This document shows positions 7,833 through 63,574 of a stretch of DNA of 64,000 nucleotides, piece by piece. The DNA is from a virus. The first letter of the stretch is position 1. Each line of letters starts with the position of its first letter. The stretch covers positions 1-64,000 of the IMG/VR virus record IMGVR_UViG_3300032304_002285; one strand, 5' to 3'. The notes under the pieces were generated by a model. That model worked only from the letters and a program-made list of their open reading frames with translations. It ran no database searches and had not been told where the DNA came from. The position numbers and the translations under genes were made by a program.

Positions 7833-8558
7833 ATGGAAAATCAAAAATTAGCTAAAGAGTTGTTAAAGATTGCCAGAGATTTGGTATCTGATTTAGGTAG
7901 TGCTCGTCCAAGGGGTCAATTTAGGGGAAATGGTAGTCAATGGGAGTTTGGGGAAGATTACCAAAGTAAAGCTTCATGGGATTGGACTGCGGACATTGGT
8001 TTGTACGGTAAAAAGGATTTGAGTATTGAGGGAGCAACAGAACAGCATCCAGGGTTTAATAAAGCGATTCGGGAGATTGTGAAGAAATATCCAGAGATAA
8101 TGGAGTATAAGATTTCGTTTGATGGTCCCTTGGTTCCAATTGGAGAAGTTTTAGGATTAAAGACGCCAGAAAGATGGGATGATATTATCTTTTATCATGG
8201 GACTGCGACTGCTGCTCTTGATGCTATTCTCTCAGGTGGATTAAAATCTCGGATGGAGACTGGGGCGGCTGCTGCTCATGGGGCAAACCTTGGCAAACCT
8301 TCCCTTCATTCTGATGCTGTTTATCTGACAACACAAAAGAATACGGCAAATTTTGCAGCGAGGGATGCGGCAAGTAAGACGAAAAGTAAGCCTGTTGTGT
8401 TGGCTATTCGGGGTTTTTCAGGGAATGAGAGAAGTTGGGTTTCCGATGAGGATTCAAGGCAAGATGACCCTTGGGAATCCTTGAGGAAGTTGGGATCTGT
8501 TGCTTATAAGGGAACGATTCCTCCGAAATTTATTAAGGTTGATAGGATTTTAGATTAA
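7833..8558 (+). CDS. Tagged protein: shared N-terminal helix plus ADP-ribosyltransferase-fold (Tpt1/ART-like) domain
   Basis: ATG 7833 after AAGGAG; N-terminus MENQKLAKELLKIARDLVS; C-domain 'FYHGT...AILSGGLK...VYLT...A.NFA..AA...PVVLAI'. Confidence 0.6.
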   Translation: MENQKLAKELLKIARDLVSDLGSARPRGQFRGNGSQWEFGEDYQSKASWDWTADIGLYGKKDLSIEGATEQHPGFNKAIREIVKKYPEIMEYKISFDGPLVPIGEVLGLKTPERWDDIIFYHGTATAALDAILSGGLKSRMETGAAAAHGANLGKPSLHSDAVYLTTQKNTANFAARDAASKTKSKPVVLAIRGFSGNERSWVSDEDSRQDDPWESLRKLGSVAYKGTIPPKFIKVDRILD

Positions 8559-8574
8559 AGCATTAGGAGTCGTT

Positions 8575-8862
8575 ATGAATAATCTTAAATTAGCTGAAGA
8601 GTTGTTAAAGATTGCCAAGGATTTGACTGCCAAGAAGGATTTGTATTGGTTGGCAAAGCAAGTGAAGGTTGGTCATTATCCGTCTGATGATTCTGAGCAA
8701 GGCGATTGGGCAGGAGAAGTTCAATTGCAAGTAATGGAAATCTGGAATCAACTGAATAAGAAAGAGCGGGATGGAATTGAAAAAGAATTGATGGTAGAAG
8801 GAAAACCATTAAAGATTGTATTAAATGGGGTATTGAATGCTGTGATTAATACTCTGACATAA
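8575..8862 (+). CDS. Tagged hypothetical protein
   Basis: N-terminus MNNLKLAEELLKIAKDLTAK; RBS AGGAG. Confidence 0.7.
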   Translation: MNNLKLAEELLKIAKDLTAKKDLYWLAKQVKVGHYPSDDSEQGDWAGEVQLQVMEIWNQLNKKERDGIEKELMVEGKPLKIVLNGVLNAVINTLT

Positions 8863-8886
8863 AGTAGAAAAAATCTTTTTACTAAC

Positions 8887-8920
8887 GGGAGGATCAGGCA
8901 ACTGGTCCTTCTTATTTTTT
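8887..8920 (+). terminator. Rho-independent terminator
   Basis: GGGAGGATCAG-GCAA-CTGGTCCTTCT followed by a T run. Confidence 0.75.
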
Positions 8921-8958
8921 GTGTTATATTGAGGATTCAACCCAAATGGAGGGAAAAT

Positions 8959-9327
8959 ATGAAAGTGATTACTGAGCATCAATGCGGTGGCGGGATGGAT
9001 GAAGGTTTGGTAGTGAGGACGGTTGATGAGCCGGGTCCTGGTGGTGCTCATCATGAATATCATGTTGAGATTACCAATGGATCTGAGACTGAAGTTATAG
9101 GGATTAAATTTCAGAAGGGTCCTGTTAAGGAAGTTGGGTTGAATGGATTGAGTCAAGAGGTTTTACTTGCCATTGTGGTTGACAGGCTTCAGGATTTTCA
9201 GAATGGTCCTTTTGCTTGTGAATCGAATCAGAAGGCATTGGTTGCAGCAAGAGAGTCTTTGGGTTTCTTGAAGTCTCGGACATTAGATAGGATCAAGAGA
9301 CAGGTTGAGGGTAGAAACATAAAGTGA
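8959..9327 (+). CDS. tad1: Tad1/Acb2-family anti-defence nucleotide sponge (Thoeris anti-defence 1-like)
   Basis: 'EPGPGGAHHEY...IKFQKG...G...LL.IV.DRL..FQ.GPF....N..AL...R..DRI.R.V.G.N.K' matches the remembered Tad1 signature along its whole length; ATG 8959 after GGAGG. Confidence 0.85.
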   Translation: MKVITEHQCGGGMDEGLVVRTVDEPGPGGAHHEYHVEITNGSETEVIGIKFQKGPVKEVGLNGLSQEVLLAIVVDRLQDFQNGPFACESNQKALVAARESLGFLKSRTLDRIKRQVEGRNIK

Positions 9328-9347
9328 AAACTTTTTACGGTAGGGTC

Positions 9348-9619: not shown

Positions 9620-9710
9620 GGAGGGATGGCTGAGCGGCTTAAGGCGCACGTTTTGAAAACGTGAGGCGGCTGATACCCGTCCGAGGGTTCAAATCCCTCT
9701 CCCTCTTCCA
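9620..9710 (+). tRNA. trnS: tRNA-Ser(TGA)
   Basis: CACGT-TT TGA AA-ACGTG, long variable arm, CCA. Confidence 0.92.
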
Positions 9711-9716
9711 TTTTAT

Positions 9717-9802
9717 GCCAGGATGGCGAAATTGGTAGACGCAGCAGACTCAAAATCTGCCGCCCTGGTGGCATGTGGGTTCGACTCCCATTCCTGGTAC
9801 CA
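9717..9802 (+). tRNA. trnL: tRNA-Leu(CAA)
   Basis: GCAGA-CT CAA AA-TCTGC, GCCAGGA/TCCTGGT, CCA. Confidence 0.93.
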
Positions 9803-9820
9803 ATTGCAAAGGAGTATGTT

Positions 9821-10039
9821 ATGTCAAAAGAAAAGAAGGCTAGAAGGGCAATAGAGTTAGAAGGAACCGGAGTTACAATTGAATTGGAAAAAGTTGTCTG
9901 TGTGAGTTTGACGGCTAAGGACAAGTGTTTTATTAGTTTGGAGAAACTTCCTAGTGGAGGGTTTCGGCTGATTTACACTGACAATTTGATCCAAGACATT
10001 TCTAAGTTTACAGGGATGAGGATGATTCGAGAGGAATGA
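9821..10039 (+). CDS. Hypothetical protein inside the tRNA cluster
   Basis: RBS AAGGAG before ATG 9821; 72 aa open frame. Confidence 0.6.
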   Translation: MSKEKKARRAIELEGTGVTIELEKVVCVSLTAKDKCFISLEKLPSGGFRLIYTDNLIQDISKFTGMRMIREE

Positions 10040-10046
10040 GATTTAT

Positions 10047-10128
10047 GCTGCTGTACCCGAATTGGCATAGGGGTTCGCTTGAGGTGCGAATGCCGAAAGG
10101 CGTAAGGGTTCGAGTCCCTTCAGTAGTA
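10047..10128 (+). tRNA. trnL: tRNA-Leu(GAG)
   Basis: TTCGC-TT GAG GT-GCGAA, GCTGCTG/CAGTAGT. Confidence 0.9.
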
Positions 10129-10143
10129 CTTTTCAGATTTCAT

Positions 10144-10229
10144 ACGAGGGTGGTGAAATGGCAGACACAGCAGGTCTAGACCCTGCTACTCTTAAGAGTA
10201 TAGGGGTTCAAGTCCCCTCCCTCGTACCA
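10144..10229 (+). tRNA. trnL: tRNA-Leu(TAG), non-canonical C33
   Basis: GCAGG-TC TAG AC-CCTGC, ACGAGGG/CCCTCGT, CCA. Confidence 0.85.
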
Positions 10230-10310
10230 TGTTTCTTTTGATGGTTACTCGGATGAGCATTCGAGTATTAAAAACGAGGGCTAGACATTCGTTGCCATCA
10301 TGTTTTTGCA

Positions 10311-10330
10311 GGAGGCGTGGCCGAGTTGGT
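10311..10330 (+). pseudogene. Orphan 5' fragment of a Ser-type tRNA directly upstream of the HNH cassette
   Basis: GGAGGCGTGGCCGAGTTGGT resembles the 5' end of tRNA-Ser(GCT) at 10895 and has the same TTTTGCA leader as other Ser tRNAs here; no 3' half follows. Confidence 0.55.
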
Positions 10331-10391
10331 AGTACATGGAAATCAGCTATAGTTGTGACATATTAATGTCATACAACTCGCGGAGGTTTCC

Positions 10392-10895
10392 ATGAGAACA
10401 GAAAATGCCATTTGTCAGGTTTGTAAGAAGGCGTATTATCGTCGTCCGTATCAAAGAGAAAATTTTGCTAACAATTTTTGTTCGCTTGAATGTTATGGTA
10501 AGTCAAAGAGAAGAGCTTTTTCTTTGTGTGAGACTTGTCATAAACCTTTTCATGGGAAAAGAAGAGAACAGAGATTTTGTTGTGGGGTTTGTGCTTTGAA
10601 ACAAAGAAGCTCTCGGACTGCCCAAGGAATGTATTCTGGAAGTCTAACTAAGAATAAAAGTAAAATGATGTTTGAAGAGCTAAGGCGTAGGTTGGATTTT
10701 AAGACTTGTATGATTGAAGGCTGTTCTTATGACAAGACTTTTGATATACACCGTTTAATTCCGGGTTCTGATGGTGGTAAGTATGAAGTGGGGAATATGT
10801 TCGCAATATGCCCTAACCATCATGCCGAGATTCATAGGAATATAATTAAAGTAGAGAAGGTTAATGATGGATGTCTTAGGGAAAAGAATTTGTAG
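10392..10895 (+). CDS. Free-standing HNH homing endonuclease with N-terminal Zn-binding repeats
   Basis: CxxC...FCSxxC repeats; C-terminal 'DIHRLIPGSDGGKYEVGNMFAICPNHHAEIH'; its stop codon overlaps G1 of tRNA-Ser; RBS and ATG lie in hairpin CATGGAAA/TTTCCATG. Confidence 0.8.
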   Translation: MRTENAICQVCKKAYYRRPYQRENFANNFCSLECYGKSKRRAFSLCETCHKPFHGKRREQRFCCGVCALKQRSSRTAQGMYSGSLTKNKSKMMFEELRRRLDFKTCMIEGCSYDKTFDIHRLIPGSDGGKYEVGNMFAICPNHHAEIHRNIIKVEKVNDGCLREKNL

Positions 10896-10982
10896 GAGAT
10901 GTGGCTGAGTGGCTTAAGGCGGCTCTCTGCTAAGGAGTTGGCGGCTAATACCCGTCCGTAGGTTCAAATCCTACCATCTCCG
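10895..10982 (+). tRNA. trnS: tRNA-Ser(GCT)
   Basis: GCTCT-CT GCT AA-GGAGT, GGAGATG/CATCTCC, G73. Confidence 0.9.
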
Positions 10983-10989
10983 CAGTTTC

Positions 10990-11061
10990 AGGGATGTGAT
11001 GTAATTGGTAGCATAAAGGATTCCAAACCCTTTCGTCTCAGTTCGAGTCTGAGCGTCCCTG
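10990..11061 (+). tRNA. trnW: tRNA-Trp(CCA)
   Basis: Loop TT CCA AA, AGGGATG/CGTCCCT, G73. Confidence 0.88.
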
Positions 11062-11066
11062 GATTT

Positions 11067-11158
11067 CATGAAGTGACGGAATTGGTAGACGTAGCCTCAG
11101 TAGAGACGCCAAAACTCGAACAGGCTGGCAATTGCAGGTTCGATTCCTGCCTTCATGG
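11067..11158 (+). tRNA. Atypical tRNA-like RNA with an expanded anticodon arm (identity unclear)
   Basis: Perfect CATGAAG/CTTCATG acceptor, Leu-type D arm, T arm GCAGG-TTCGATT-CCTGC; AGCCT/AGGCT stem encloses 24 nt instead of 7. Confidence 0.6.
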
Positions 11159-11170
11159 AAATTTTCTCTT

Positions 11171-11256
11171 AGGTGTATGACTGAGCGGTTTAAGGTGGCT
11201 CCTGGACGGGGCTGAGGCTCTTCGAGCTTCCGTAGGTTCAAATCCTACTGCATCTA
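11171..11256 (+). tRNA. trnS: tRNA-Ser(GGA), copy 1
   Basis: GGCTC-CT GGA CG-GGGCT, variable arm GAGGCT/AGCTTC, T arm GTAGG-TTCAAAT-CCTAC; C37 is unusual. Confidence 0.75.
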
Positions 11257-11273
11257 AGAGGAATTATTTTGCA

Positions 11274-11366
11274 GGAGGAATGGGTGAATTGGCTAAACCA
11301 GCAGTCTCGAAAGCTGCCGAATCGGGTTAACTACTCGATGTGAGGGTTCGATCCCCTCTTCCTCCG
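11274..11366 (+). tRNA. trnS: tRNA-Ser(CGA)
   Basis: GCAGT-CT CGA AA-GCTGC, GGAGGAA/TTCCTCC, G73. Confidence 0.92.
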
Positions 11367-11626
11367 CAGATTTTTATTCAGAAGGTTTGGATTTTGAGAA
11401 GAATGAAGTAATTGAGTAAGTGGAGGTAACAATGAAAAAGTGTCAATGTTGCAAGGGTGCTGGAATGAGTCATTCGGTTCTTAAGGACCATGGGAGCAAA
11501 AAGATGGAGTCCCACATTACTCCATGTGATAGCCCAACCTGTAAGAATGGATATGTGAGTGAGTCTTTGGTTGAGGAGTATTACAAGAATTTTGCTGAGT
11601 ATGGGAAAGTAGTTTAAGTTTAGTTT

Positions 11627-11703
11627 GGATGGTGAGCAAGTCTGGTTGATTGCGCTCGGTTGAAGCCCGAGAGAACTCGGTTCGATTCCGAGACCATCCA
11701 CCA
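11627..11703 (+). tRNA. trnF: tRNA-Phe(GAA)
   Basis: CTCGG-TT GAA GC-CCGAG, GGATGGT/ACCATCC, CCA. Confidence 0.92.
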
Positions 11704-11711
11704 ATTTTAGT

Positions 11712-11787
11712 GACGGGATGGCTGAGAGGCTTAGGCACTTGTCTGCAAAACAAGACCACAGGGGTTCGACTCCCCTTCCCGTCTCCA
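11712..11787 (+). tRNA. trnC: tRNA-Cys(GCA)
   Basis: CTTGT-CT GCA AA-ACAAG, T73, CCA. Confidence 0.93.
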
Positions 11788-11792
11788 TTGTT

Positions 11793-11896
11793 AGTCTTGA
11801 GAGATGGTGGTTCAAGCCCACCCACGCCGCTTTACCTGGGAGGGTTCTGACGGTGTAGTAAGTCGTTTAAACGGTAAAGACGCTCAAGGCTTTCAG
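11793..11896 (+). ncRNA. Candidate circularly permuted tRNA-Glu(TTC): 3' half (11793-11830) precedes 5' half (11851-11896)
   Basis: TCTTGAG (11795-11801) pairs with CTCAAGG (11883-11889); ACGCCG (11824-11829) pairs with CGGTGT (11851-11856); T arm GGTGG-TTCAAGC-CCACC in the upstream half; D arm GTT/GAC and loop CT TTC AG in the downstream half. Confidence 0.5.
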
Positions 11897-11983
11897 GATG
11901 TATTATTGAAGGTGGCAAGGCGACTATCAGATGTGTCGCGCAGGACTGAGTTCGATTCTCGGCAGAACTACTAAAGAGTTTTT

Positions 11984-12078
11984 GGGAGAGCGGCAACGAT
12001 TGGCTGGTGTTGCGCTAGACTGTAAATCTAGTCCCTTTGTGGTAAACATAGGGGGTTCGATTCCCTCCTCTCCCACCA
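11984..12078 (+). tRNA. trnY: tRNA-Tyr(GTA), intact
   Basis: CTAGA-CT GTA AA-TCTAG, GGGAGAG/CTCTCCC, CCA; extended 5-bp D stem. Confidence 0.9.
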
Positions 12079-12141
12079 ATTTATATGGCAATGATTAATA
12101 ACAGAGGTATATTACACCAGTGTAAAAAGGAGAGGTGTAAT

Positions 12142-12549
12142 ATGCTTAATGGTCACAAGAATACAAAGAAACAGGGTGATGTGGGTCTTGGGTTGGCAAT
12201 TGGTTGGTTTTCTTCTCTAGGGCATACGGTTTGTGTTCCATTAACAGATAGTCAGGATTATGATTTGATTGTGGATATAGATGGAAAAATCCACCGGGTT
12301 CAGGTTAAGACAACAACTTATAAATCTGAATATGGGATTTTTACCACTAACCTTAGTGTGAAGGGTGGGAATAGGACATCGGTTGGAAAAGTGAAGAAAT
12401 TTGACTCCAATAAGGTAGACAATGTTTTTATCGTAACGAGTGATGATGAGTATTATTTTATACCTGCATCACAGATAGAAGCAAAACATAACATTTCTCT
12501 TGGTACGAAATGGATTCAGTACAAAGTAAAACCTGTCCCTTTGAGGTGA
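12142..12549 (+). CDS. PD-(D/E)XK homing endonuclease (I-Ssp6803I/PDDEXK_5-like), free-standing
   Basis: 'KQGDVG..LAI...LG..V.VPL.D...YDLIVD.DG.I.RVQVKT'; ATG 12142 behind hairpin ATATTACACC/GGTGTAATAT; last codons run into the displaced tRNA-Tyr 3' half. Confidence 0.85.
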   Translation: MLNGHKNTKKQGDVGLGLAIGWFSSLGHTVCVPLTDSQDYDLIVDIDGKIHRVQVKTTTYKSEYGIFTTNLSVKGGNRTSVGKVKKFDSNKVDNVFIVTSDDEYYFIPASQIEAKHNISLGTKWIQYKVKPVPLR

Positions 12550-12594
12550 ACAATGAAGGTGCAACTCCTTCTGCCACCACCAATTGTTTTGCAT

Positions 12595-19714: not shown

Positions 19715-20539
19715 ATGAAGACGGTTGCTTCTGAGTTGTTGAAGATTGCCAAGAGCTTGGTTGCAGCCCGTCCTATTCCCATTGATAAGAAAGCGGTTAA
19801 GGAATTCGTTGATGATATTCTTCTTTCTTCTGTTTTTAGATGGGCATCACAGCAAAATCCAAACAAGAAGCTTGGTAGACAACCAATTTGCAAGTCTGTT
19901 TTCTCCTTAAAGAATCCAAGAGGAGAACATGTAAGTTTGGATGTAATAGTACAGACAAGTCCACACAGCAATGATTCAATATTTACCGGAGGATATTTTT
20001 CTAGAGTCAAATCCCCTGGAAGGTGGAAGATTGTTTTGGGAATCAATGAAAACCTATATCCATCTTCGATTCTTGAAAATCCGAATAAGCTTGGGGCTAT
20101 ACTTTATTCTGCTATGATTCATGAGTTGACTCATGCTTTGGATGTAATTCCAGATGGTGTTTCCCGAATGGATTATCTCAAGAAACAAAATTCCCCTGGA
20201 GTCATTCCAACAGGTGATGACATTGATTTTAAAAAATATGTCAACAATCCGGTTGAGGTTCGGGCTCATATGCAACAAGTGGTTGACGAGGTTCTAACAA
20301 GGGTTAGCAATCCCTATTATTTGGCTTTCTTAAAGCGGACCTACCCGAATGACATGAAAGACAAAATGATTGGGAAAAATGCTATGACAAATCTTTCTCC
20401 TAAATGGTGTTTCCTAATCGAAAATGGAATCAGTAAGGAAAATCGGAAGAAGATTTTGCAAGCTGTTTATAGAGCATTGGAAGATAGTGGTTTGTTTGAC
20501 AGGACAAAAGAAGTGAATGATGGTGCTGTTTTAGAATAA
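19715..20539 (+). CDS. Tagged HExxH (zincin-like) protein, paralogous to the N-domain of 38202
   Basis: N-terminus MKTVASELLKIAKSLVAARPIPIDK; MIHELTHALD; YVNNPVEVRAHMQ. Confidence 0.7.
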   Translation: MKTVASELLKIAKSLVAARPIPIDKKAVKEFVDDILLSSVFRWASQQNPNKKLGRQPICKSVFSLKNPRGEHVSLDVIVQTSPHSNDSIFTGGYFSRVKSPGRWKIVLGINENLYPSSILENPNKLGAILYSAMIHELTHALDVIPDGVSRMDYLKKQNSPGVIPTGDDIDFKKYVNNPVEVRAHMQQVVDEVLTRVSNPYYLAFLKRTYPNDMKDKMIGKNAMTNLSPKWCFLIENGISKENRKKILQAVYRALEDSGLFDRTKEVNDGAVLE

Positions 20540-32694: not shown

Positions 32695-32741
32695 ATTTGA
32701 ATAAAAGGTCTTATCATAAATGAAATTTGGAGATTTTTGTT

Positions 32742-33461
32742 ATGAAAAAGACCTTTCAGGAAGTTACGGATTATTTAGGCAAGGCGAAGTTCTTTGAAAT
32801 CTCAAGGAAGAGCGAGAAGCTTTACATTGAGATTGTCCGATTGGAGTATAGGAATCGGGAAACAGATAGCGATCAATTAAAGAGATTGAAGAAAGAGCAT
32901 GGGGAATTAGAAGAGAAGATTGAGAGATTAGAGAAGGGATTGAGGTTTGCAACGGGATGGGAGATGGATGAATGGCAGAAGGAAAGGGATAGCAACTTCA
33001 AGAGGACTCTCTTTGATATTAGTCTGAAGAGAGTAGCTAAGTCTTTATTGAGGGTTGCTAGGAGGTTGTTGTCTAGTAGCTATGGCCATAGTCTTTGGAT
33101 TGATCCTAAGGGTAAGGTTATAGATATGGGTAATGATTGGATGCATTACTCTTGGATTACTAGGAATTTTCATACTCTGTTTCCTGGTGAAGAGTTCTCT
33201 AAGGAGAAGGTGTTTGATCTTCCTTTTGAAAATGGTTGGATTCATTTTAGGAATCATCCTGGGGACGTTTCGATGACAGGGAAGAGAGAGGCGATCAGAA
33301 GGAATAAGGATTTGATTGGTAAGATTATCATGGATAATTTTGAGGATAGGGGTAAGTATTTAGGGAAGTTTTTCGTTGTAGTTTATTTCAGTAAGACTCA
33401 GCGTGAGATTTATGAGTTGCCCAAGGATTTTGATGAATTAAGGTCTATAGTTGCGGTTTAA
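32742..33461 (+). CDS. Protein with an internal tag helix and a C-domain shared with 34027 and 63080
   Basis: Internal KRVAKSLLRVARRLLSS followed by 'LWIDPKGKVI...H..W...NGWIHFR'. Confidence 0.6.
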   Translation: MKKTFQEVTDYLGKAKFFEISRKSEKLYIEIVRLEYRNRETDSDQLKRLKKEHGELEEKIERLEKGLRFATGWEMDEWQKERDSNFKRTLFDISLKRVAKSLLRVARRLLSSSYGHSLWIDPKGKVIDMGNDWMHYSWITRNFHTLFPGEEFSKEKVFDLPFENGWIHFRNHPGDVSMTGKREAIRRNKDLIGKIIMDNFEDRGKYLGKFFVVVYFSKTQREIYELPKDFDELRSIVAV

Positions 33462-33592: not shown

Positions 33593-33856
33593 ATGGACAA
33601 GGCAAAAGTATCTAAAGAGTTGGTTAAATTAGCCAAGGATTTATTAAGTGGCACTGAGACGAAGAGGACTGCTGGCTATGATTCCGATGACGGGATTGGT
33701 ATGTATTTGAATGCGATAGAGGAATTGGAGAGAGACATAGTGAAGGCTAGGCATGAGTTAGAGCGTGGGAAGCTGGGTCTTTGGGCGCAGAATTTAGCTG
33801 CTAAGTTGGATGGTGGTTCTTATACCAGGGATTTTTATAGACAGCTTTATGGATAA
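33593..33856 (+). CDS. Tagged hypothetical protein
   Basis: N-terminus MDKAKVSKELVKLAKDLLSGTETKRTAG. Confidence 0.7.
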   Translation: MDKAKVSKELVKLAKDLLSGTETKRTAGYDSDDGIGMYLNAIEELERDIVKARHELERGKLGLWAQNLAAKLDGGSYTRDFYRQLYG

Positions 33857-34026: not shown

Positions 34027-34434
34027 ATGAAAGAAGCGGGTGATTTATTAAGGATAGCGAAGGAATTACTTACTGAGGCTATTAGATGGCGTGATTATGG
34101 TGCTTGGGTATTGCCGAAGGGGAAGATTCTTCCGGTTCAGTCTGAGTATAGCCATAGTGATGTGGCGAAGTCATTTTTTTTAGAAGAGGATGGGTCTTTT
34201 AACAATTCTCCTTATTTAGAGGCTAGCATTCGTGGTTGGGTTAGGGTTGCTTATCGTCCTGATTTGAACATTCATCTTCCGACTCATATAACTTCGGCAC
34301 AGCGTTCTATTTTAGAAGATATGATAAGTGAATATCACAAAGAGTCTTTTGTGATAGATAAGGATGTAAAGTCTTTATCATTTGACGATAGGGAGAGGGC
34401 TATTCGTTTTATGAGGAGTGCTAGTCATGGGTAA
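34027..34434 (+). CDS. Tagged hypothetical protein
   Basis: N-terminus MKEAGDLLRIAKELLTE; 'AWVLPKGKILPV...HSDVA...RGWVRV'. Confidence 0.7.
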   Translation: MKEAGDLLRIAKELLTEAIRWRDYGAWVLPKGKILPVQSEYSHSDVAKSFFLEEDGSFNNSPYLEASIRGWVRVAYRPDLNIHLPTHITSAQRSILEDMISEYHKESFVIDKDVKSLSFDDRERAIRFMRSASHG

Positions 34435-34772: not shown

Positions 34773-35936
34773 ATGAAACAGATAGCTCAAGAGTTGATTC
34801 GGTTGGCGAAGGAATTGGTAGGTGAGTCTTATCCTTTTGGTGCTACTGAGAAGACTAAGGCAATTATAGATGATTGTCGTTTGTGTTTAGAGGCAAAGCA
34901 GATTTACAATGCAAAGTTCAATGATTATAAGCATTCATTGACTGGGAATTTGGAATCATATGGTGGTTATCTGAATAAGACAGGCAATATGAGTAGAGCC
35001 GTATTCCTTTACGGATATAAATATGAATTTTTAGTTAATAGTTTTACTGAATTACCTAAAGGGATTCGGAATTTAGAGAAGGTATTGAGCAAGAAAGCGT
35101 TTCCAGAAGAGATATTAGAGAATGCTCATGAGAGTGATATAGAGGCAATCAAGGCAGCATGGCCAAAGGCATTAGAAGATCAGTTGAGCATATTGAAGTC
35201 ATGGCTTCCGGTTAAGCAGTTGTTGGATGAATTGAAACCTTTGATTGTAAAGGGTAGGGCTCCTGCTGCTCCTGACCCAAATAAATTTGTAGCTCCTCGT
35301 TCTAGTACGTCTGTAATTTCCTTTGTTACTGATGAATTAAAGAAGTTGGTTGATCCTTTGGTTAGTGGTTTAGAGAAAAGTCTCATTGAGGATTCGATAA
35401 AGGTAGTTGAGGAGGTTGATCAGAAGATTGTGAAGTATTTAGAAGATCATCCAGAGAAGGGCGGTAGAGCAGATATAGCGGCTAGAGCGGTTATTGGAGA
35501 GGATGGTCAATTAAGGCAATTGTGTTACAAGACTATAGGTGGAATTGGTGGAGGAAGTTCTTATAAGGGCTTGAATAAAGACTATAAGGAAGAGATTGGG
35601 AAGATAGTGAGGACAGAGATTAAAGACATGGTAGAAGCATTCATTGCTAAGAATTCGGGGAAGATTTCTCCAATTATTTCATTAAAGGGGAAATTGAAGG
35701 GTGCTAAGATCTTGAAGGGACATCTTGCAGGCTTTGGATTCTGGGGAGAGATCCTTTTTGATTTTACTGATGGTACGGAATTCACGGTTAGAAACAAGAT
35801 GGTTCGGAAATGGAACTACAGTGGAGTTTTCTATCAGTTCCCAACAACCTTTCATGATGTAAAATTCCCAGATGGTAAGGTTAGAGCCATGCTTTCTGAG
35901 CAAGAAATGAATCAGGATTGGGCTTCATTAAAATAA
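34773..35936 (+). CDS. Tagged hypothetical protein (387 aa)
   Basis: N-terminus MKQIAQELIRLAKELVGE. Confidence 0.72.
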   Translation: MKQIAQELIRLAKELVGESYPFGATEKTKAIIDDCRLCLEAKQIYNAKFNDYKHSLTGNLESYGGYLNKTGNMSRAVFLYGYKYEFLVNSFTELPKGIRNLEKVLSKKAFPEEILENAHESDIEAIKAAWPKALEDQLSILKSWLPVKQLLDELKPLIVKGRAPAAPDPNKFVAPRSSTSVISFVTDELKKLVDPLVSGLEKSLIEDSIKVVEEVDQKIVKYLEDHPEKGGRADIAARAVIGEDGQLRQLCYKTIGGIGGGSSYKGLNKDYKEEIGKIVRTEIKDMVEAFIAKNSGKISPIISLKGKLKGAKILKGHLAGFGFWGEILFDFTDGTEFTVRNKMVRKWNYSGVFYQFPTTFHDVKFPDGKVRAMLSEQEMNQDWASLK

Positions 35937-36047: not shown

Positions 36048-36728
36048 ATGAATAGGTCTACCATAGCTAAAGAACTCTTGAAGATTGCTAGCTCTCTAAT
36101 TGCAGAGATAGAGTTGCCAGAAGATCCCTGGAAATACTTCAAGAAGGTTCCTGATGCAATAATGATTGAGGTAAAGGATTTGGAAACGATTAGGGCAAGA
36201 CCTACGGGAATAGAGCATGCAGAAAAGCATATGGAAAATGCTTATAAGGGAATAGGTGAGAAAAGAAAGCCTATCTCTGTTGTACGCAAGGGAAATAAAT
36301 GGATGGTCTTTGATGGCAATTCAACAACAGCAATCGCTAAGAAACATGGATGGAAACAAATTCCAGTCTTAGAAGTAGATGAACAGGGGAATTATGTAAA
36401 AGATGGAGGGAAAAGGGTTGCCTCCAAGTTAGAGATAGTAAAAGAAGAAGTGGATGAGAGAAATACAAAGGTATTACAGTCTGCCAAAAAACTTAAGGCA
36501 AGATCTCAGGGACATATCGTTGATTCAATACAGGCGGCTGGATATTATGCCAAAAAGCATAATCGTGATTATTATGTGTATTATGGAAATTCTTATGGAC
36601 ATGCTATTTGGAATATAGGATTGAAGAGTGATGCCTTGAGTCCGGTTAATAATACCTCTGATAATTTCGTCTATAAAGTCAGTCCTGATTTAGTAATCAC
36701 AAAGATTACTACAAAAAGAGGGTATTAA
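36048..36728 (+). CDS. Tagged ParB/Srx-like domain protein
   Basis: Probable start 36048, MNRSTIAKELLKIASSLIAE; 'RKPISVVRKGNKWMVFDGNSTTAIAKKHGWKQIPV'. Confidence 0.62.
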   Translation: MNRSTIAKELLKIASSLIAEIELPEDPWKYFKKVPDAIMIEVKDLETIRARPTGIEHAEKHMENAYKGIGEKRKPISVVRKGNKWMVFDGNSTTAIAKKHGWKQIPVLEVDEQGNYVKDGGKRVASKLEIVKEEVDERNTKVLQSAKKLKARSQGHIVDSIQAAGYYAKKHNRDYYVYYGNSYGHAIWNIGLKSDALSPVNNTSDNFVYKVSPDLVITKITTKRGY

Positions 36729-36733: not shown

Positions 36734-37318
36734 ATGAAAAAATTAAAAGCATGGTTTGTTCAAGCAATTGTCAGGGTTTTTGGAAATATTCAGATATTTT
36801 GGCAACCCATGTTTTTGATCCTTTGGGGGGAAACTCATTACAATCTCAAAGGACCTGAAATGCGTCAAGTCATGAACAAATTAGAAGTTGGGGATATTCT
36901 ACTGAGAAAGCATGATAGATATATTTCATCATGGTTTATTCCTGGCTTTTATAAGCATGCTGCAATCTTTGTTGGAAAGAATAAAATCATTCATGCAACG
37001 ACTCATGATATCTTTGAAGAAGATATTCTTACATTCCTTCGCTGTGACTCTGTTGCTATTCTCAGAATCAAAAACTTGACTGAAGAAGAAAAAAACAAAG
37101 CTATTGATCTGGCTAGGGATATGATTGGTAAAGGATATGATTTCGATTTTGGGAAATCAAAGGACGGTAAATATTATTGCACAAGTTTAGTAAGATGGTG
37201 TTACCCTAATCGCTTTAAAAGTCTGAAGGATGAAGAAACAATCAAACCTCAAGACTTCTTCTATCAAGGATTGGATGTAATTCATGATAGTAGAATCTAT
37301 AGAGAAGATCATACCTGA
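36734..37318 (+). CDS. YiiX/YebB-like permuted NlpC/P60 cysteine hydrolase
   Basis: 'GDILLR...FIPG.YKHAAIFVG...IHAT...GKGYDFDF...YYCTSLV.WCY'. Confidence 0.82.
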   Translation: MKKLKAWFVQAIVRVFGNIQIFWQPMFLILWGETHYNLKGPEMRQVMNKLEVGDILLRKHDRYISSWFIPGFYKHAAIFVGKNKIIHATTHDIFEEDILTFLRCDSVAILRIKNLTEEEKNKAIDLARDMIGKGYDFDFGKSKDGKYYCTSLVRWCYPNRFKSLKDEETIKPQDFFYQGLDVIHDSRIYREDHT

Positions 37319-37374: not shown

Positions 37375-38202
37375 ATGAAGACTAATGCTGTTGAATTACT
37401 AAGGATAGCAAGAGAACTAATCTCTTCAGATAAATCTGCTGAATTAAAACAAAAATTGGAAACGATTGTCTATGGGGATTATAAAATCGGACAATTGACA
37501 GCAACTCTTCAGTGGATCAAGTCTAATTTCAATTATGACGTGTCTAGGGGCAAGCAAGGCTTCAAACCCGTAAGAGACGCCTTTACCCGCTTCTTTGACA
37601 TCCTGAAGGACGCAGAAGGCTCTAAGGACTCTAAAAGCTTTGTTACTTCAGTCTATGAGTCAAGAATAAAAGATAAGGTAGATGAGTTTGCTGAATTGTT
37701 TGCAACTACTGACAATAGTACGATCAAAATTGGAAATTATGAATTTGTAAATGGAGTTGGCTTCTCTCAAGATAATTTCCTGAAACAAGCAACAAATATT
37801 GCCAGAGTCTTTGATGAGGTAAAGGGATGGAGAAGAAAAGCCTTTGATGGTGGGTTGAAGGTTATCTTCTCAGGAGCACATAATTTCAATGGAACAGCTA
37901 GTGGTAAATATAGTGTAAAAGATGATACGCTTTATATCAGAGCTACATCTAATGTCCTGAAAAGAGGAAAGGGTTATGGTAGCCCCGAATACGTCCTTAT
38001 TCATGAATTAGGACATAGATACGAATACAAGAACCCAAAAGCTGATCAATTCAATAAATTCGGATGGCAAACAACTTCTTATAGTTTCAGTGAAGATGAA
38101 GCCTTCGCTGAATTGTTCGCCCTTGGACACTTCAATATAATTTCCTTGAGAGACAAAAACTTCTCAGAGAAATTAGAAGCCTTTGAAAAGGAGATGAACT
38201 AA
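37375..38202 (+). CDS. Tagged HExxH protein
   Basis: N-terminus MKTNAVELLRIARELISS; 'LIHELGHRY...EAFAELF'. Confidence 0.7.
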   Translation: MKTNAVELLRIARELISSDKSAELKQKLETIVYGDYKIGQLTATLQWIKSNFNYDVSRGKQGFKPVRDAFTRFFDILKDAEGSKDSKSFVTSVYESRIKDKVDEFAELFATTDNSTIKIGNYEFVNGVGFSQDNFLKQATNIARVFDEVKGWRRKAFDGGLKVIFSGAHNFNGTASGKYSVKDDTLYIRATSNVLKRGKGYGSPEYVLIHELGHRYEYKNPKADQFNKFGWQTTSYSFSEDEAFAELFALGHFNIISLRDKNFSEKLEAFEKEMN

Positions 38203-39584
38203 TGAAAATTACAGCAGCTAATCCTATTCCTCTTGATAAAGCTAAAATCAAAACACTTAATGAGAAAATTGTATCTTCATTGTTTGAAGTCTTACAAACA
38301 CTTCCAGTCGATAAGCCAATCAGAACCCAATTCCTGGTGAGGGAAACCTTTAAGCTCAATAATTTAAAAAATGAACCAATGAATATTGAAATAGCAATCG
38401 TAGGAAAAATTGGCAACAATTCTAAATTTGAAAAGATTCTAGGTGGAACTTGTGCAATATTGAGGACAGTGGATAGAAAATTATATGGAGCAGATATCGA
38501 AGTGTTCCTTAATGGAAACCTCTTCCCTACTGATTTCTCTAAGAGTATCACTACGGATGTCTATAACACACTCATCCATGAAATTACCCATGCAATTGAT
38601 CCAGCTAAAGATCAAAGAATCCCAGAAAATCTCAACGATTACTACAATACTCCAGTGGAAATTAATGCCTATATCCAAAATATCTTGGAAGAATTAGAAA
38701 CAAAAGTCGAAGCAATCGTTGATAAAAATACCAGTTATTCTAATCAAATCCCAAAAACAGATAAAAGAGAAGTTCTCAAGGATTTACTCATGGATTCTAA
38801 ATTCTGGAATAAAGGGAAGAATTATTGGAATCAACAAGCTAAACAAAAAATCTTCCAGGCGGTTTATAAACTCATTGATCAGTATACAGATACCAGTACA
38901 TCTAATAAAACAGCAGCATTAAAGCTGGAACATAGATATCATGGATATCACGATCAACAATCTGATGAATCTATCATTGCCTTCATTGATGGAGAAATGG
39001 CAGGGTTCTTGGATTACTCAGAATTTCAAAAACAACCAGCGGTAAAAATGATCGAAGTAAAAAAAGAATTTCAAAGAAAAGGAATTGCTACAGAATTACT
39101 CAAAGAACTTGATAAACTCTACCCAAATACAGAAATAGATTATGGATATTCAACAACAGAGGGATCAGAGCTTATTAAGAGCTATATAAAGAGATTCCCG
39201 AAAAAATTAGATTTTGAAAAAGGATTCTCAAATAAGGATTTCGTTATGAGCTTCTTACCCGGAGGCAAAAACGGGAAAAACATAGATTGGTGGGAAATGT
39301 GCTCCATATTCTCTAATACCTCTATGGATATTGACAATTATGATCTAACATACCCACCATCATTCAAGCAATTTACCAAAGATCTTAATAAAATTACAAC
39401 AGAAGAATGGAAAAAAGCAGCTAAAGAACTTAGGGAAAGGGTGGGTATTACAGTAAACTCTGAAATGAAGGCTTCATCAAATAAGGAGGTAAGAGGTAAA
39501 CAACACGTCTCTTCCTCTCCTGATGCTATCTTCACTGGCACAGCTAAAGAACTAATCTATATTGCTAAATCATTAATCTCCTAA
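38202..39584 (+). CDS. HExxH domain plus GNAT-like domain, with the tag helix at the C-terminus
   Basis: AANPIPLDK, LIHEITHAID, YYNTPVEINA; GNAT motif 'IEVKKEFQRKGIATELL...EG.EL'; ends TAKELIYIAKSLIS. Confidence 0.7.
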   Translation: MKITAANPIPLDKAKIKTLNEKIVSSLFEVLQTLPVDKPIRTQFLVRETFKLNNLKNEPMNIEIAIVGKIGNNSKFEKILGGTCAILRTVDRKLYGADIEVFLNGNLFPTDFSKSITTDVYNTLIHEITHAIDPAKDQRIPENLNDYYNTPVEINAYIQNILEELETKVEAIVDKNTSYSNQIPKTDKREVLKDLLMDSKFWNKGKNYWNQQAKQKIFQAVYKLIDQYTDTSTSNKTAALKLEHRYHGYHDQQSDESIIAFIDGEMAGFLDYSEFQKQPAVKMIEVKKEFQRKGIATELLKELDKLYPNTEIDYGYSTTEGSELIKSYIKRFPKKLDFEKGFSNKDFVMSFLPGGKNGKNIDWWEMCSIFSNTSMDIDNYDLTYPPSFKQFTKDLNKITTEEWKKAAKELRERVGITVNSEMKASSNKEVRGKQHVSSSPDAIFTGTAKELIYIAKSLIS

Positions 39585-51065: not shown

Positions 51066-51102
51066 GGAATTGAGTCAACTGAGAACAAAGGAGACTGGCA
51101 AA

Positions 51103-57934: not shown

Positions 57935-59647
57935 GAAAAAGTTGATTTTCAATTACTTCCTTATTAGGGAGATAGGGAGGTAGGGGGGAAATATGACAAC
58001 TTATGACACAGACCAAGATTTAGTAATCGGCTATAGGGTTCAAGTAGGGTATCTTCTTCTTCCGAAGGCATTACCTGATAGAAGAGGAAAGACCCGAATC
58101 CGTAGATGGCTAGAGTTTGCAAAATGGGAAGAGATGAAGGAGTATAATATTTCCACAGAACAATATCATTGGGTTCCGAAGAAATGGTTGGATAGGTAAA
58201 GTCAGAGTAGTAAAATCTAAAAAATCCCAAGCTATAAAACATAGTCTTGGGATTTTCATTAAAGGGAGATAGAGATCATGGCAAAGTTTAAGGTTCCGGA
58301 ATTTGTGGTAAACGGTAAAGATGGCAATAAGGGTAAATGGCATTTGTTGGCGTCTAATGGGCTTTATGCCAATCAGGGAGTAACGGTTTGTAATCGCTAT
58401 GCTCCGGAATGGGAAAAGCTTCCTATTAGTGAAATAAAGGCTGAGTGTATTTGCCAGAAGTGTCTTGGTCCATTGAAGGTTGAGGATTGAGCTAATGGTA
58501 AAGAAAACAATCAGTGACTCTATAGCCGTAAGACCCATTCACCAAACTAAGGGTAAATGGCATTTGGTTTTTAAGGAAAATCAAAATGTTGTTTGTGGAG
58601 CTTGCTTCTCTAATAAAGAAACTAAGCCTCTTAAGGAACTAGATGTTACTGATTGTTGTCCCAAGTGTATGAGTGTGTTTAAATTTTAGGAGTAAATAAT
58701 TTTTATGGCTAGGGTGATTGTTCTTGGACAAGTGAAAGAAGGAAATCAGAAGGTTCAGCTTAGAGGAGTCTTTACCCAAAAGAAAAAACTATGGCAAGCA
58801 ATTGAAACGATTGCTGGACCCATTCAAGGCAAATTCATTTTAGATGATGTATCAGGGAAAGAGTATGATGCAACATATGCTAATCTCTGTAATCGGTTGA
58901 GATTGATTGGAAGGGCTACGCTCTTAGGACCTGATAAACAAAGAGAGTGTTTGATCATTGAAAGCATGCTGAATGAAATAAGGGATTGGGATACGGATGA
59001 GAACAACAATCCCAAGTTGAATCCAGTCAAGGGAAATGAAGATGACAAAGAAGGCGAGTGATTTAGAAATTGGGGATATGGTTATCAAGCATGATGGTAA
59101 TCATAGTGCAGGAACCATTATCTCAAAAATGGATGATCCTGAGAGAATCACAAAAACCTATTTCCTGGTAAGAAGTCCAGAAGGAGCTTGGACAATTTAT
59201 GGCGCATTAAAAAATACGCATTGTGAATTGTACCTGACAAGAAATATCCCTGAAGCAGTAATGAGGAAATTCTTGTTTGATGCTTTTGTCGGAGTAGATC
59301 TTGTTTACAATCCTGAATTACAGGAAAGAATTCCTCTATTAAATGTCCCTACCTATGAAACCAAAGCAAAACAAAAACGAGCAATAATTCCTAAGCCTGA
59401 AGAAACCAAAACTAAAAAGGCTTTATGGAGACAAGAGAAGGATGAGGATCAAGAGTTCACTGAGGATGAGGAACCAGAGAAGCCTATAGAGGCACTAGGA
59501 GAGACGAAGAAGACAGAGGGGGCTGAAGACCCACTACTAGAGGAACCGATTGAGGAACCTACCCCTGTAGAGAAGCCTATGGGGGAACCACTAGAGGAAA
59601 CCCAAGAAAAACTTTTACCTGAATTTTCTTTTATTTTTTAGCAATCG

Positions 59648-59677
59648 TTGGATTTTAATACCTGAAAAGTAATACAT
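59648..59677 (+). promoter_or_regulatory. Conserved phage promoter (variant)
   Basis: TTGGATTTT-N11-AGTAATACAT; similar variants at 3782, 4651 and 11387. Confidence 0.65.
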
Positions 59678-59704
59678 GCGAGAAGAAAAGGAGAAACTTC
59701 TCGT

Positions 59705-60910: not shown

Positions 60911-61213
60911 GAAATAGGACAGCTATTTTTCAAAAGGGGAATTTTTTTGAAGTCGGGGGTCAGTTTGGTGTCACAGGTTTTTTCTAAAAATTGAAATTAG
61001 GAAAAGTATATTTTGGGAAATAATTAATCTTGGGTGGGGGCAAAGGTGGGAATCAAGGTGGGGGATTAAGGTGGTGGCACGTGTGGGGTATAATGTGGGG
61101 ATGAGGTGAGGATAGCGTGTGGGGAAATAGGACAGTTAAAATTTGGATTTGGGTTGTGGGAAGGGTAGGGGATCAGTTTGGTGTTGGTGATTTTTTCAGA
61201 AAATTGGAATTGG
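60911..61213. repeat. Diverged ~90-bp direct repeat with conserved blocks (offset 213 nt)
   Basis: GAAATAGGACAG (60911, 61124); G(G/A)TCAGTTTGGTGT exactly 47 nt later in both (60958, 61171); then TTTTTTC.(A/G)AAAATTG(A/G)AATT. Confidence 0.75.
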
Positions 61214-61289
61214 GTTTGGATTTGGGGTATGTGTTTGGTGATAGATGGGTGTAGGGATTGAGTCAAGTGAGATTAAAGGAAGGTGTGAG

Positions 61290-61790
61290 ATGGCAAAGGA
61301 ATTGAGCAAAGAGGTTTTGGTGTTGTTGGCTGGGAGTAAGGTTAATGAGCGAGCGATGTTGATAGCGATGGTAGCTCATGCTGGTCAATATCGGAGGGAT
61401 GGTGTTACTCCTTATATTGTGCATCCGATGTCTGTTGCGTCGAAGGTTCTTGATGCACAGAAGGCGGTTGCATGGTTGCATGACGTGTTGGAGGATTGTG
61501 AGGGCTGGGAGGCTGTTGATTTGATAGCGTTGGGGATTCCGGCGAATGTTGTTGAGAGTGTGGTTGCCTTGACGAAGGTGAATGGGATAGCGATTGAGGA
61601 TTACATGGAAGGTGTGATGCGGAATTGGGATGCATTGATTGTGAAGATAGCGGACATGAAGAGTAACATGGCTGGGAATCCGAGTGAGAAGGCACGGCTT
61701 TCGTATGGGAAGTGGCTACCGATTTTGCAGGCGAAGTATAAGGAGGTTGAGAAGGCGACTCGGAAGATTCGGAATCGGATAATTAGTTGA
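61290..61790 (+). CDS. HD-domain hydrolase (small alarmone hydrolase / Mesh1-like)
   Basis: 'AHAGQYRRDG.TPYIVHP..VA...AVAWLHDVLEDC...ALTK...VKIAD...N'. Confidence 0.85.
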   Translation: MAKELSKEVLVLLAGSKVNERAMLIAMVAHAGQYRRDGVTPYIVHPMSVASKVLDAQKAVAWLHDVLEDCEGWEAVDLIALGIPANVVESVVALTKVNGIAIEDYMEGVMRNWDALIVKIADMKSNMAGNPSEKARLSYGKWLPILQAKYKEVEKATRKIRNRIIS

Positions 61791-62399
61791 GGTGTTTTTG
61801 GGCTGGAACGGGATGGTAATTGAGTTTCCGGATGGATGGATATTTTTTATGAGTGAGAAGCGTAGAATTGAATTTGAGAGTAAGGCGAATGAAAAGCATT
61901 ATTGGCGGAAGAGGATGGGGCGAAAGGAAGCGAGTCATGGTTGGTTGGATGTTTATGAGGATTTGATCAAGCGGGTTGATGAGTTGATGAAGGAGTATCG
62001 TCATGCGATTTATTTAGAGGGTAGGGGGTATGTGTATCGGGAGCAGTATTTAGGGTATTCGTGGGAACGGGTGTTAGTAAAGAGTTGGGTTGAGTATCGG
62101 AAGATTATAGCTGATGATGCGAGGTATTTTTTAAAGAGATCTCATGAGTCATTGGTTTTGTCACGTAAGGGGAAAGAATGAAGGGCAAGGTAATTAAGAT
62201 AAAGGTAGTTGGGGAGAGTTATAGAAATGGTTTCAGGGAGAATGGTTATTGTGTAGCGTGGTTATCTGATGGTGGGAGTTGTTTTGTTCCTGGGAGTGAG
62301 TTTGCTGGATTGGGTGAGGCATTGGATTATATAGTGAAAGAGGGTTATGATGTAGAAGAGGTTCGAGCGGGGTTAGACAGATGGGTAAAGGAGGGTTAG

Positions 62400-62849
62400 A
62401 TGAGGAAGTTCAGGGGATGGCACAAAGATCATGGTGAGGCGAAGAAGGTGATTGCTTTTGGGGATGGGAGTGTTGAGGTAATTTGGATTGACAGGGGATA
62501 TTGCAGTGAGGTATGGCCAGAGGGTGAGCCTCATGAGATAGTTGATGCTGAGAGTAAGGGCTGGGTGATTGAGGAGAGTAGTGAGTTGTTTGACAGGGAT
62601 GGGGTTGAGATTTTTGAAGGTGATTTGGTTAGATTAGATGACATTAATGAATTGCCTTATACGATGATTATTAAATTAAAGGATAATGGTGTTATTAAGG
62701 GTGAGAAGGATTCTGTGATTGGGCAGGTTCTTTTTCACAGTGGGAATTTTTGTTTTGGGGTTTTGTTGAATGGTGTGATTGAGTCAAGGGCATTGGGATT
62801 TATTGACAAGAAGAATTTGGTTGTTGTTGGCAGGGCAAAGGGGGAATGA
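62400..62849 (+). CDS. YopX-family protein
   Basis: 'MRKFRGW...LFDRDGVEIFEGDLV...F...VVG'. Confidence 0.78.
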   Translation: MRKFRGWHKDHGEAKKVIAFGDGSVEVIWIDRGYCSEVWPEGEPHEIVDAESKGWVIEESSELFDRDGVEIFEGDLVRLDDINELPYTMIIKLKDNGVIKGEKDSVIGQVLFHSGNFCFGVLLNGVIESRALGFIDKKNLVVVGRAKGE

Positions 62850-63079
62850 ATTGAAAGAGTTTATTACAGGGTATCGAGTGATTGACGGGAAGCGGACGAG
62901 AATGGTAGGGAGTGTTGTATACACATTGGGGGACAAGACGAGGATGCCAGTGAGTGAGATATGTTTGATGGTAGAGGGTAGTGTGAGGAAGAAATGGAAA
63001 TTGAATAAAAAGGATAAGGTTATAGTGGTTGGTGTTTTGGAACGGGAATTAAAAGTCAGTTAAATAGAGAGGTGATAAG

Positions 63080-63574
63080 ATGCAAGAGGGATGGTGGGTT
63101 AATTACCGGACTGGTAAAGATTTTTACGTTAAGGAACATGAGACATGGATTCGTCAGCCGGGGAATGCTGATAAGGCTGGTGTTCCCGCTGAGATTCAGA
63201 AGAAGTTTAGCAAGTTCAAGGCTGTTCAGGACAGGGATAAGTTTTTGATGTTTTTGATGGAGAGTTGTCCCTTGATGAGGATGCGTGGTCATGGGAGTGA
63301 TATTACATTTGAGTACTACAACAGTAATAGTCGGGATGCTATTGAGGCTGTTCATAAGGCTGCACATGATTACGGTGGTAGGTTGTCTACGTTGAACATT
63401 TACAATTTGATGTCTCACGAGATGACTTCGATTCAGCGTGACGAGTTGGACAGGGTGATGGATGAGAGTGGGGTTGAGGGTGTGATGAGGGCTGCGAGTG
63501 AGAAGTTTAGTTTAGATGGGAGTAAGATGATTAAGGAGTTATTGGCAGTGGCGAAGGAATTGGCTATGGATTGA
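63080..63574 (+). CDS. Protein with a C-terminal tag helix; domain related to 32742 and 34027
   Basis: Starts GWWVNYRTGK...HETWI; ends SKMIKELLAVAKELAMD. Confidence 0.62.
   Translation: MQEGWWVNYRTGKDFYVKEHETWIRQPGNADKAGVPAEIQKKFSKFKAVQDRDKFLMFLMESCPLMRMRGHGSDITFEYYNSNSRDAIEAVHKAAHDYGGRLSTLNIYNLMSHEMTSIQRDELDRVMDESGVEGVMRAASEKFSLDGSKMIKELLAVAKELAMD

Follow-up and report, generated by a model that had tools for sequence, protein, structure and literature searches.

A portable amphipathic helix on unrelated proteins of a giant-phage clade: a candidate address for loading into the virion

A short amphipathic helix, here called the tag, is carried by eleven proteins encoded in the first 64 kb of a 180,758-bp IMG/VR virus record (IMGVR_UViG_3300032304_002285, positions 1 to 64,000; hereafter the window, the complete record being referred to as this genome or G000). 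Analysis of this record, of eight related IMG/VR records (G001, G002, G007 and G011-G014, read whole, and G015, read in part) and of metagenomic proteins leads us to favor, with a probability of roughly 0.55, the reading that the tag is a docking helix for loading proteins into the virion. Support for this reading comes from the location of tagged genes in morphogenesis blocks, the overlap of their cargo with packaged phage proteins, the hypervariability of that cargo and an upstream element common to scaffold and tail-tube genes. The preliminary description of this stretch had proposed a capsid-loading or effector-delivery system; the portable docking-type module on unrelated cargo is borne out, and loading into the virion is supported indirectly, by gene context and cargo overlap.

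Translation and a position matrix built from the eleven copies placed each of them where it had first been reported (tag starts at nt 7845, 8587, 19721, 33030, 33605, 34030, 34779, 36060, 37381, 39537 and 63524), and a loose pattern matched 12 sites in the window, on the plus strand only. Scanned over the six frames of the whole record, a check that the preliminary description had proposed, the matrix retrieved 17 sites at 13.5-42 bits and one weak site at 129918, all on the plus strand, with nothing else above 12 bits, an empty gap beneath the true sites and no match on the minus strand. The scan added six N-terminal tags outside the window (66456, 67027, 70065, 76032, 79355 and 159650), and two degenerate copies lie inside the tail gene block of this genome, at 83149 and 83956. 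Leave-one-out scores ranged from 12 to 40 bits. Thirty residue-shuffled proteomes returned 0-1 matches at 13 bits or more (about 0.1 expected, against the 17 clear sites and the 19 matches observed), and unrelated jumbo-phage records scanned with the tag profile gave only 0-1 weak matches.

The consensus derived from 239 tags (all retrieved tagged proteins, including those of this genome) is M-[ND]-[KNR]-x-K-[VI]-A(95%)-x-E(92%)-L(94%)-[LV]-[KR]-[ILV]-A(97%)-[KR]-[ESD]-L(92%)-x-[ASG](96%), in which Ala3, Glu5, Leu6, Ala10 and Leu13 of the tag are conserved at 92-97%. Tags are 15-19 residues long, and 14 of the 17 in this genome start 2-9 residues after the initial Met, two being C-terminal and one internal. 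With a hydrophobic moment of 0.4-0.9 and a net charge of 0 to +2 in most copies, the tag could conceivably be an amphipathic helix targeting the host inner membrane. Its mean hydrophobicity is, however, close to 0, the near-invariant Glu5 and the acidic residue or Ser at position 12 form i/i+4 Lys-Glu pairs typical of soluble helix-helix interfaces, and conservation of 92-97% at five positions is far tighter than lipid binding requires, all of which makes a membrane role very improbable.

Synonymous codons for the conserved Leu, Glu, Ala and Lys vary from one tag copy to the next, indicating selection on the peptide and not on the DNA. This observation also bears on the proposal that the leader has no common function, being left over from gene duplication or serving as a recombination handle for swapping cargo between phages. 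Tagged genes are indeed clustered and turn over quickly, and the deviant base composition at 37.4-39.6 kb, over two tagged genes, suggests transfer. Nevertheless, unconserved synonymous sites leave no DNA homology for recombination, the peptide is kept at 92-97% at its key positions in a clade that spans 37-64% GC and whose DNA polymerases are only about 50% identical, and the tag is found at C-termini too. We therefore consider an idle leader scarcely credible.

The proteins that bear the tag are largely non-homologous. The AlphaFold model (13 sequences, pLDDT, the predicted local distance difference test, 86.7) of the 241-aa protein encoded at 7833..8558 (+; tag nt 7845-7889) comprises a helix at residues 2-21 (pLDDT 60-76), a flexible linker (below 50) and a cargo domain (about 90) that Foldseek matches to Tpt1/KptA, DarT1 and the catalytic domains of pertussis and cholera toxins, with E-values from 5e-4; as modeled, this Tpt1/DarT-like cargo is an ADP-ribosyltransferase (ART) fold, in keeping with the ART-like assignment made at the outset. 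Twelve homologs of the ART-fold cargo from other contigs lack the tag. Outside the window, tags were found on a CCA-adding enzyme with an HD domain and on a protein with a weak RelA/SpoT match; the CCA-adding enzyme is tagged in this genome, in G014 and in the metagenomic protein P0016, whereas its G001 ortholog, 44% identical, starts without the tag.

The HExxH motif could be read directly in three tagged proteins, as had been reported, and two of these provide the clearest case of relocation. The 274-aa HExxH protein encoded at 19715..20539 (+) and the first 226 residues of the 460-aa protein encoded at 38202..39584 (+), which joins an HExxH domain to the GNAT domain announced previously (Pfam E-value 2e-7), are paralogs (E-value 6e-16); the former carries an N-terminal tag (nt 19721-19765), whereas the latter bears its tag at the far C-terminus (nt 39537-39581, followed by the stop codon) and retains only the remnant 'MKITAA' at its N-terminus. 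Together with the untagged ART and CCA-adding relatives, these paralogs uphold the earlier view of the tag as a portable N-terminal, C-terminal or internal element and, as judged from the sequences, show it here to be a docking-type module on non-homologous cargo, working at either end. Most tagged proteins hold a single cargo domain, the 38202 protein being the only one with two.

Cargo and tag evolve in markedly different ways. Only 1 of 18 tagged cargoes is conserved in the relatives, compared with 63 of 169 untagged genes (Fisher p = 0.007), and the tagged cargo is thus hypervariable while the tag itself stays conserved, a pattern like that of the T4 internal-protein genes. The short 'basic-x-Ala-small' motifs that the preliminary description had interpreted as domain separators did not hold up: they occur 12 times in 164 independent tagged proteins against 6.6 expected, with 13 in the largest shuffle, several matches are the tag's own K-[KR]-V-A-[AS] start, and the 'KITAA' of the 38202 protein is the remnant at the place where its paralog has the tag. 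Cleavage after these Ala motifs is not supported.

The genomic context of tagged genes was examined in this genome and its relatives. The record, rated 51% complete by CheckV and hence corresponding to a complete genome of about 350 kb, shares its gene order with six relatives, and its tail module occupies the block at 80.6-108 kb, which encodes a tail-tube-like protein (language-model similarity 0.97), a weak minor-tail match and a baseplate-wedge-like repeat protein. Immediately next to this block lie the tagged genes at 66-80 kb. In six related contigs tagged genes stand within the head and tail gene blocks. The G001 head module (terminase large subunit, a fusion of topoisomerase IB (TopIB) with SprT, a 2,129-residue protein, head protease, acidic scaffold and capsid protein) lies directly upstream of the tail block, and the collinear head module of G011, absent from the 180-kb fragment of this genome, runs terminase, tagged TopIB, two tagged genes, protease, scaffold, capsid protein and nine consecutive tagged genes, the topoisomerase (Pfam E-value 4e-30) being tagged at its N-terminus. 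In G014 the protease is preceded by three tagged genes and separated from the scaffold by a fourth, and a tagged CCA-adding enzyme is inserted in the tail block, while in G007, G012 and G013 tagged genes are interleaved with tail genes including the tail-tube gene. The motif is the same in G002 (64% GC), in an Arg-rich dialect (A-[RS]-E-L-x-x-[LM]-A-R-E-[VI]). This embedding of tagged genes in head and tail blocks supports the virion-loading reading.

Two features of these head modules are recorded in their own right. A poxvirus/bacterial-type TopIB adjoins the terminase in G001 (L124:16057-17625), G011 (L184:6647-7399) and G012 (L177:4406-6148); it is fused to a SprT-like zincin and untagged in G001, and tag-bearing in G011 and G012. 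The scaffold-like head protein of G014 (L187:9061-10068) contains an uninterrupted stretch of about 45 Asp residues, as well as long (L)EDDLEDD repeats.

Upstream regions of tagged genes also share a promoter-like element, a hairpin followed by a T-run and [GTA]ATATT, which under a strict pattern precedes four tagged genes (33593, 34027, 66444 and 67012) and, as a near-variant, a fifth (76017). Four of the six such sites located upstream of genes in this genome precede tagged genes, and in G001 the T-run and [GTA]ATATT stand upstream of the scaffold gene, the tail-tube gene and one tagged gene.

The distribution of the tag was determined with a profile built from the N-terminal 42 residues of 14 tagged proteins, searched against 1.84 billion representative proteins, which returned 280 clusters at an E-value of 1e-3 or less. 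The 137 best foreign matches contain 201 tags, 111 of which start within 12 residues of the Met and five of which are C-terminal; the Pfam families of foreign tagged proteins include ADPrib_exo_Tox, ART-PolyVal and ART. Where carriers of tagged proteins could be traced, they are contigs of 180, 202, 271, 297 and 315 kb. Some database proteins bear two or three tags. As M-[ND]-[KR]-x stands before most of their 'internal' tags, many multi-tag proteins probably result from gene calls that were fused or extended too far; other internal tags come after Lys/Ser-rich linkers and seem truly internal. Exact back-translated patterns found few matches in IMG/VR, mostly by chance, and a looser pattern retrieved useful relatives; a search of viral contigs for related loci using a tag alignment found none.

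About one quarter of the tags run on into a second piece, [MIF]-[ED]-F-P-T-x-[DE]-A-x-x-K-Y-L-K-x-H-P-x-A-D-[KR]-S-x-H-x-V. This second module is common to the 79337 protein (genome 79337-80572; L005:15337-16572) and about 55 metagenomic proteins, with a fuller form [MI]EFPTQ[DE]A[LM]DKYLKxHPDAD[KR]SNHKV and invariant Phe, Tyr, His-Pro, His and Val. In the AlphaFold model, tag and second module form a compact helix-strand-helix-strand unit (pLDDT above 90) that has no significant fold match in PDB or BFVD and no Pfam family. No family covers the tag itself in a Pfam scan, and literature searches for tag strings and for the HPDADKS module found no paper. Hence, as first claimed, the tag motif appears undescribed in the Pfam, GenBank phage and literature searches made, although the class of feature is known from T4 capsid targeting. 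Weak matches to the Pfam families 'Phage_blade' and 'MHB' were set aside as not general to the tag, and kinship to the ribosomal bL12 helix 'LKEAKDLVE' or to a phage bL12-like hairpin was dropped, those proteins scoring below 0 with the tag matrix.

The same searches bear on whether the tag might be read by conserved host machinery (for example a chaperone, an AAA+ protease adaptor or the ribosome), either to recruit phage effectors or to time their degradation. Terminal degrons and adaptor-binding peptides likewise function at either end, the Lys-flanked Leu-rich core may resemble chaperone-binding segments, RNA or tRNA is the target of several cargoes (the Tpt1-like ART fold and the CCA-adding enzyme), and bL12-like proteins are encoded here and GroEL in G001. 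A host-read signal would nonetheless be expected to spread more widely than a motif limited to one jumbo-phage clade and not found in 50,697 GenBank phage records (one tblastn query with a tag-module protein). In addition, the C-terminal tags finish in assorted residues (IS, MD, ED, G and VA), unlike ssrA-type degrons, and the gene context is morphogenetic; we regard recognition by the host as distinctly unlikely.

A partner encoded by the phage itself is also compatible with a destination other than the virion. The encapsulation peptides of bacterial microcompartments and the cargo-loading peptides of encapsulins, shells with the HK97 capsid fold, are portable docking signals for a protein shell: amphipathic helices about 15-20 residues long, carried on a flexible linker at one end of an enzyme or between two of its domains. 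The tag resembles them in being a short amphipathic helix joined by a flexible linker to either terminus of unrelated enzymes, and differs in its consensus and in that the presumed shell here is the phage capsid. Given this likeness to the peptides of microcompartments, the tag might dock cargo on some other phage-encoded hub, for instance a cytoplasmic assembly or compartment, or tag helices might bundle enzymes together without packaging. An Ala/Leu-rich heptad pattern suited to helix-helix packing and the presence of two or three tags on some database proteins would fit such a hub, and retention of the tag in phages whose GC content ranges from 37% to 64% points to a partner encoded by the phage. 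Yet neither the bacterial microcompartment family PF00936 nor the encapsulin family PF04454 had a match in G000, G001, G007, G011 and G014 (all of them fragments), control genomes being positive; virion association accounts better for the embedding in head and tail blocks; and the likelihood of fused gene calls discounts many multi-tag proteins. A non-virion hub is on balance unlikely, while retaining some appeal.

The tag is a self-standing amphipathic helix of about two heptads, linked flexibly to its cargo, with Ala3, Leu6, Leu/Val7, Ala10, Leu13 and position 14 forming the hydrophobic face and Lys-Glu pairs on the opposite face stabilizing the helix. Under the favored virion-loading reading, the exposed helix would dock in the prohead, during head assembly, onto a conserved phage-encoded partner. 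Candidates for this partner are the acidic scaffold, the inward-facing surface of the capsid protein and other tag helices, and a single copy at a free end would suffice for the protein to be co-packaged and later delivered with the DNA into the next host. The cargo would then constitute a fast-turnover kit of host-modifying, nucleic-acid and probable counter-defense proteins, its putative members being the ART-fold enzyme, zincins, GNAT, the CCA-adding enzyme, TopIB (in relatives) and many small proteins. Docking in the prohead, packaging, ejection and any trimming are steps that we infer. A bolder and doubtful version would make the tag a position-independent packaging code of the whole giant-phage clade, operating without T4-type cleavage, in which a cargo core would form by bundling of tag helices with one another and with the strongly acidic scaffold, and one copy would suffice. 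As a matter of speculation, an assemblin-type head protease could cut at the invariant Leu13-x-small15 with which the tag ends; no type could be assigned to the head protease of the relatives.

Several observations weigh against loading into the virion. Gene neighborhood indicates co-expression at best, not packaging, and most tagged genes of the window are among small, early-looking genes distant from the tail block; the head module of this genome falls outside the 180-kb fragment. The upstream element, which points to common late expression, is weak evidence because it is short and AT-rich, and the counts are small. No receptor was found for the tag, the conserved C-terminal helices of the scaffold being unlike it: the conserved scaffold C-terminus ASxRLDxVASYLE is in a different register, and an acidic, tag-ended G007 protein has no profile similarity to the scaffold. 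One scaffold, that of G011, holds a weak tag-like insert. T4-type [LI]-x-E sites are not enriched in the 12 residues after the tag: they follow 20 of 147 N-terminal tags, where shuffles predict 17.3. Gene calls that were fused may account for the database proteins with several tags, the CCA-adding enzyme is not obvious as an injected protein, and the GenBank tblastn query mentioned above revealed no cultured relative.

The closest functional precedent is the capsid-targeting sequence of T4, a short amphipathic N-terminal peptide on the internal proteins IPI-III and Alt that directs them into the prohead for injection (PMC3012670, PMC9026906). In T4 the peptide stands at the start of unrelated proteins, as 14 of the 17 tags of this genome do; in both, an ADP-ribosyltransferase is among the carriers and the cargo genes are hypervariable. 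The tag, however, has no sequence likeness to MKTYQEFIAE of T4, is longer (15-19 aa), occurs at C-terminal and internal positions as well, is not followed by the Leu/Ile-x-Glu (gp21-type) cut site of T4 and is present on at least 17 proteins encoded by half a genome, whereas T4 has about six such proteins; this phage also has a DnaE-type polymerase and a different head gene set. The tag thus works like the T4 sequence, on the reading favored here, yet does not belong to that family.

The cargo set (ART, zincins, GNAT, RelA/SpoT-like and TopIB) overlaps with known packaged or injected phage proteins. In particular, packaged polyvalent phage proteins and T4 Alt share the cargo domains ADPrib_exo_Tox, ART-PolyVal, zincins and GNAT (PMC5512222), and the tagged set likewise includes ART (ART-PolyVal among them), zincin-like HExxH peptidase and GNAT domains, with ParB-like and RelA/SpoT domains matched weakly here. 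Like polyvalent protein genes, the tagged genes of relatives lie beside terminase, portal and head genes, and delivery with DNA is predicted for both. Polyvalent proteins, however, concatenate 2-15 domains in a giant polypeptide with a MuF/portal-type anchor, whereas here the proteins are separate and small, each with its own tag; G001 does encode an untagged TopIB-SprT fusion. The ejection or inner-body proteins of phiKZ-like phages and SPN3US and the Dar proteins of P1 are also large head-internal sets that enter the particle as it is assembled, are injected and in part act against host defenses (PMC5694885, PMC7411985, PMC12810830), but they use paralog families, propeptides cut at (S/A/G)-x-E or an ordered protein chain, and none uses a common consensus helix on unrelated cargo.

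The remaining tagged genes of the window, all on the plus strand, encode mostly proteins without a clear assignment. The gene at 8575..8862 specifies a small 95-aa protein (tag nt 8587-8631) without a Pfam match. The product of 32727..33461 has an internal tag (nt 33030-33074) after a coiled-coil extension of about 100 aa, and the start of its cargo resembles that of the 135-aa protein of 34027..34434 (tag nt 34030-34074), tag and 'W-[VI]-x-P-K-G-K' being aligned by BLASTP with an E-value of 1e-5. Between them, 33593..33856 encodes a small 87-aa protein (tag nt 33605-33649); upstream of this gene stand a hairpin, a T-run and TTGATATTTGG, and the element recurs upstream of 34027. The gene is flanked by near-identical intergenic units (33462-33592 and 33857-34026), each with hairpin, T-run and TTGATATTTGGnnCTAATTGAAAGAG, that look like a duplicated terminator-promoter cassette. 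The 387-aa protein of 34773..35936 (tag nt 34779-34823) has a cargo without an assigned family, and a search of viral contigs with it found no relative. For the 226-aa protein of 36048..36728 (tag nt 36060-36104), first described as ParB-like, a PDB sequence search left just a weak hint, with an E-value of 0.53 to a ParB-domain nuclease. An untagged permuted papain-like amidase (36734..37318; Peptidase_C92, Pfam E-value 6e-20) with a homolog in G002 lies inside the tagged cluster and is followed by the 275-aa HExxH protein of 37375..38202 (tag nt 37381-37425; weak Peptidase_M91 match), within a stretch of deviant composition. The last tagged gene, 63080..63574, encodes a 164-aa protein with a C-terminal tag (nt 63524-63568) and the lowest leave-one-out score of the set (12).

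Within window positions 36000-40000 the GC skew drops from about 0.4 to 0.10 and the AT skew climbs to +0.18 over the tagged HExxH genes at 37375-39584, the tags of which use different Leu and Ile codons; this stretch looks like a recent acquisition whose tags were intact on arrival. Elsewhere, the record has a strong GC skew and nearly all of its genes on the plus strand, encodes CobS/CobT-like proteins, an NAD-dependent ligase, a DnaE-type DNA polymerase, ribonucleotide reductase and helicases, and has no close relative among the GenBank phages searched.

The window also encodes 14 tRNAs; 12 of these genes, five for tRNA-Ser and three for tRNA-Leu among them, are tightly clustered between tagged genes at 9620-12689. 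A tRNA at 5701-5775 has the anticodon CTA, of amber-suppressor type, and is labeled Pyl by ARAGORN; TAG read-through would continue in frame across the next gene in four gene pairs (26993/27269, 28272/28530, 62178/62400 and 83149/83464). TAG recoding as a marker of late genes was rejected because TAG terminates 14% of genes. A second, sigma-70-like promoter class (TTGGAT, about 17 nt, TAATA), distinct from the element of tagged genes, was observed in the window at 45491-45552, 51010-51069 and 59642-59704 and in the genome at 73779-73880, 129999-130139 and 155812-155889, upstream of a CobS-like gene, bL12-like genes and other untagged genes.

If the tag loads particles, it offers a sequence-only read-out of the proteins injected by uncultured giant phages. 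Dozens of enzymes and small proteins would be delivered per genome, with the fast turnover that is the profile expected of host-takeover and counter-defense factors, and tagged CCA-adding, Tpt1-like and TopIB enzymes would suggest that repair functions are pre-loaded. The capsid-targeting principle of T4 would be widened from a handful of proteins to a modular code usable at either end and spanning hundreds of cargo families, and a short natural tag would become available for probing protein packaging in phage heads. Should the tag prove to be a position-independent code, the whole injected proteome, about one tenth of genes and including tRNA-repair and DNA-topology enzymes, would be readable from sequence.

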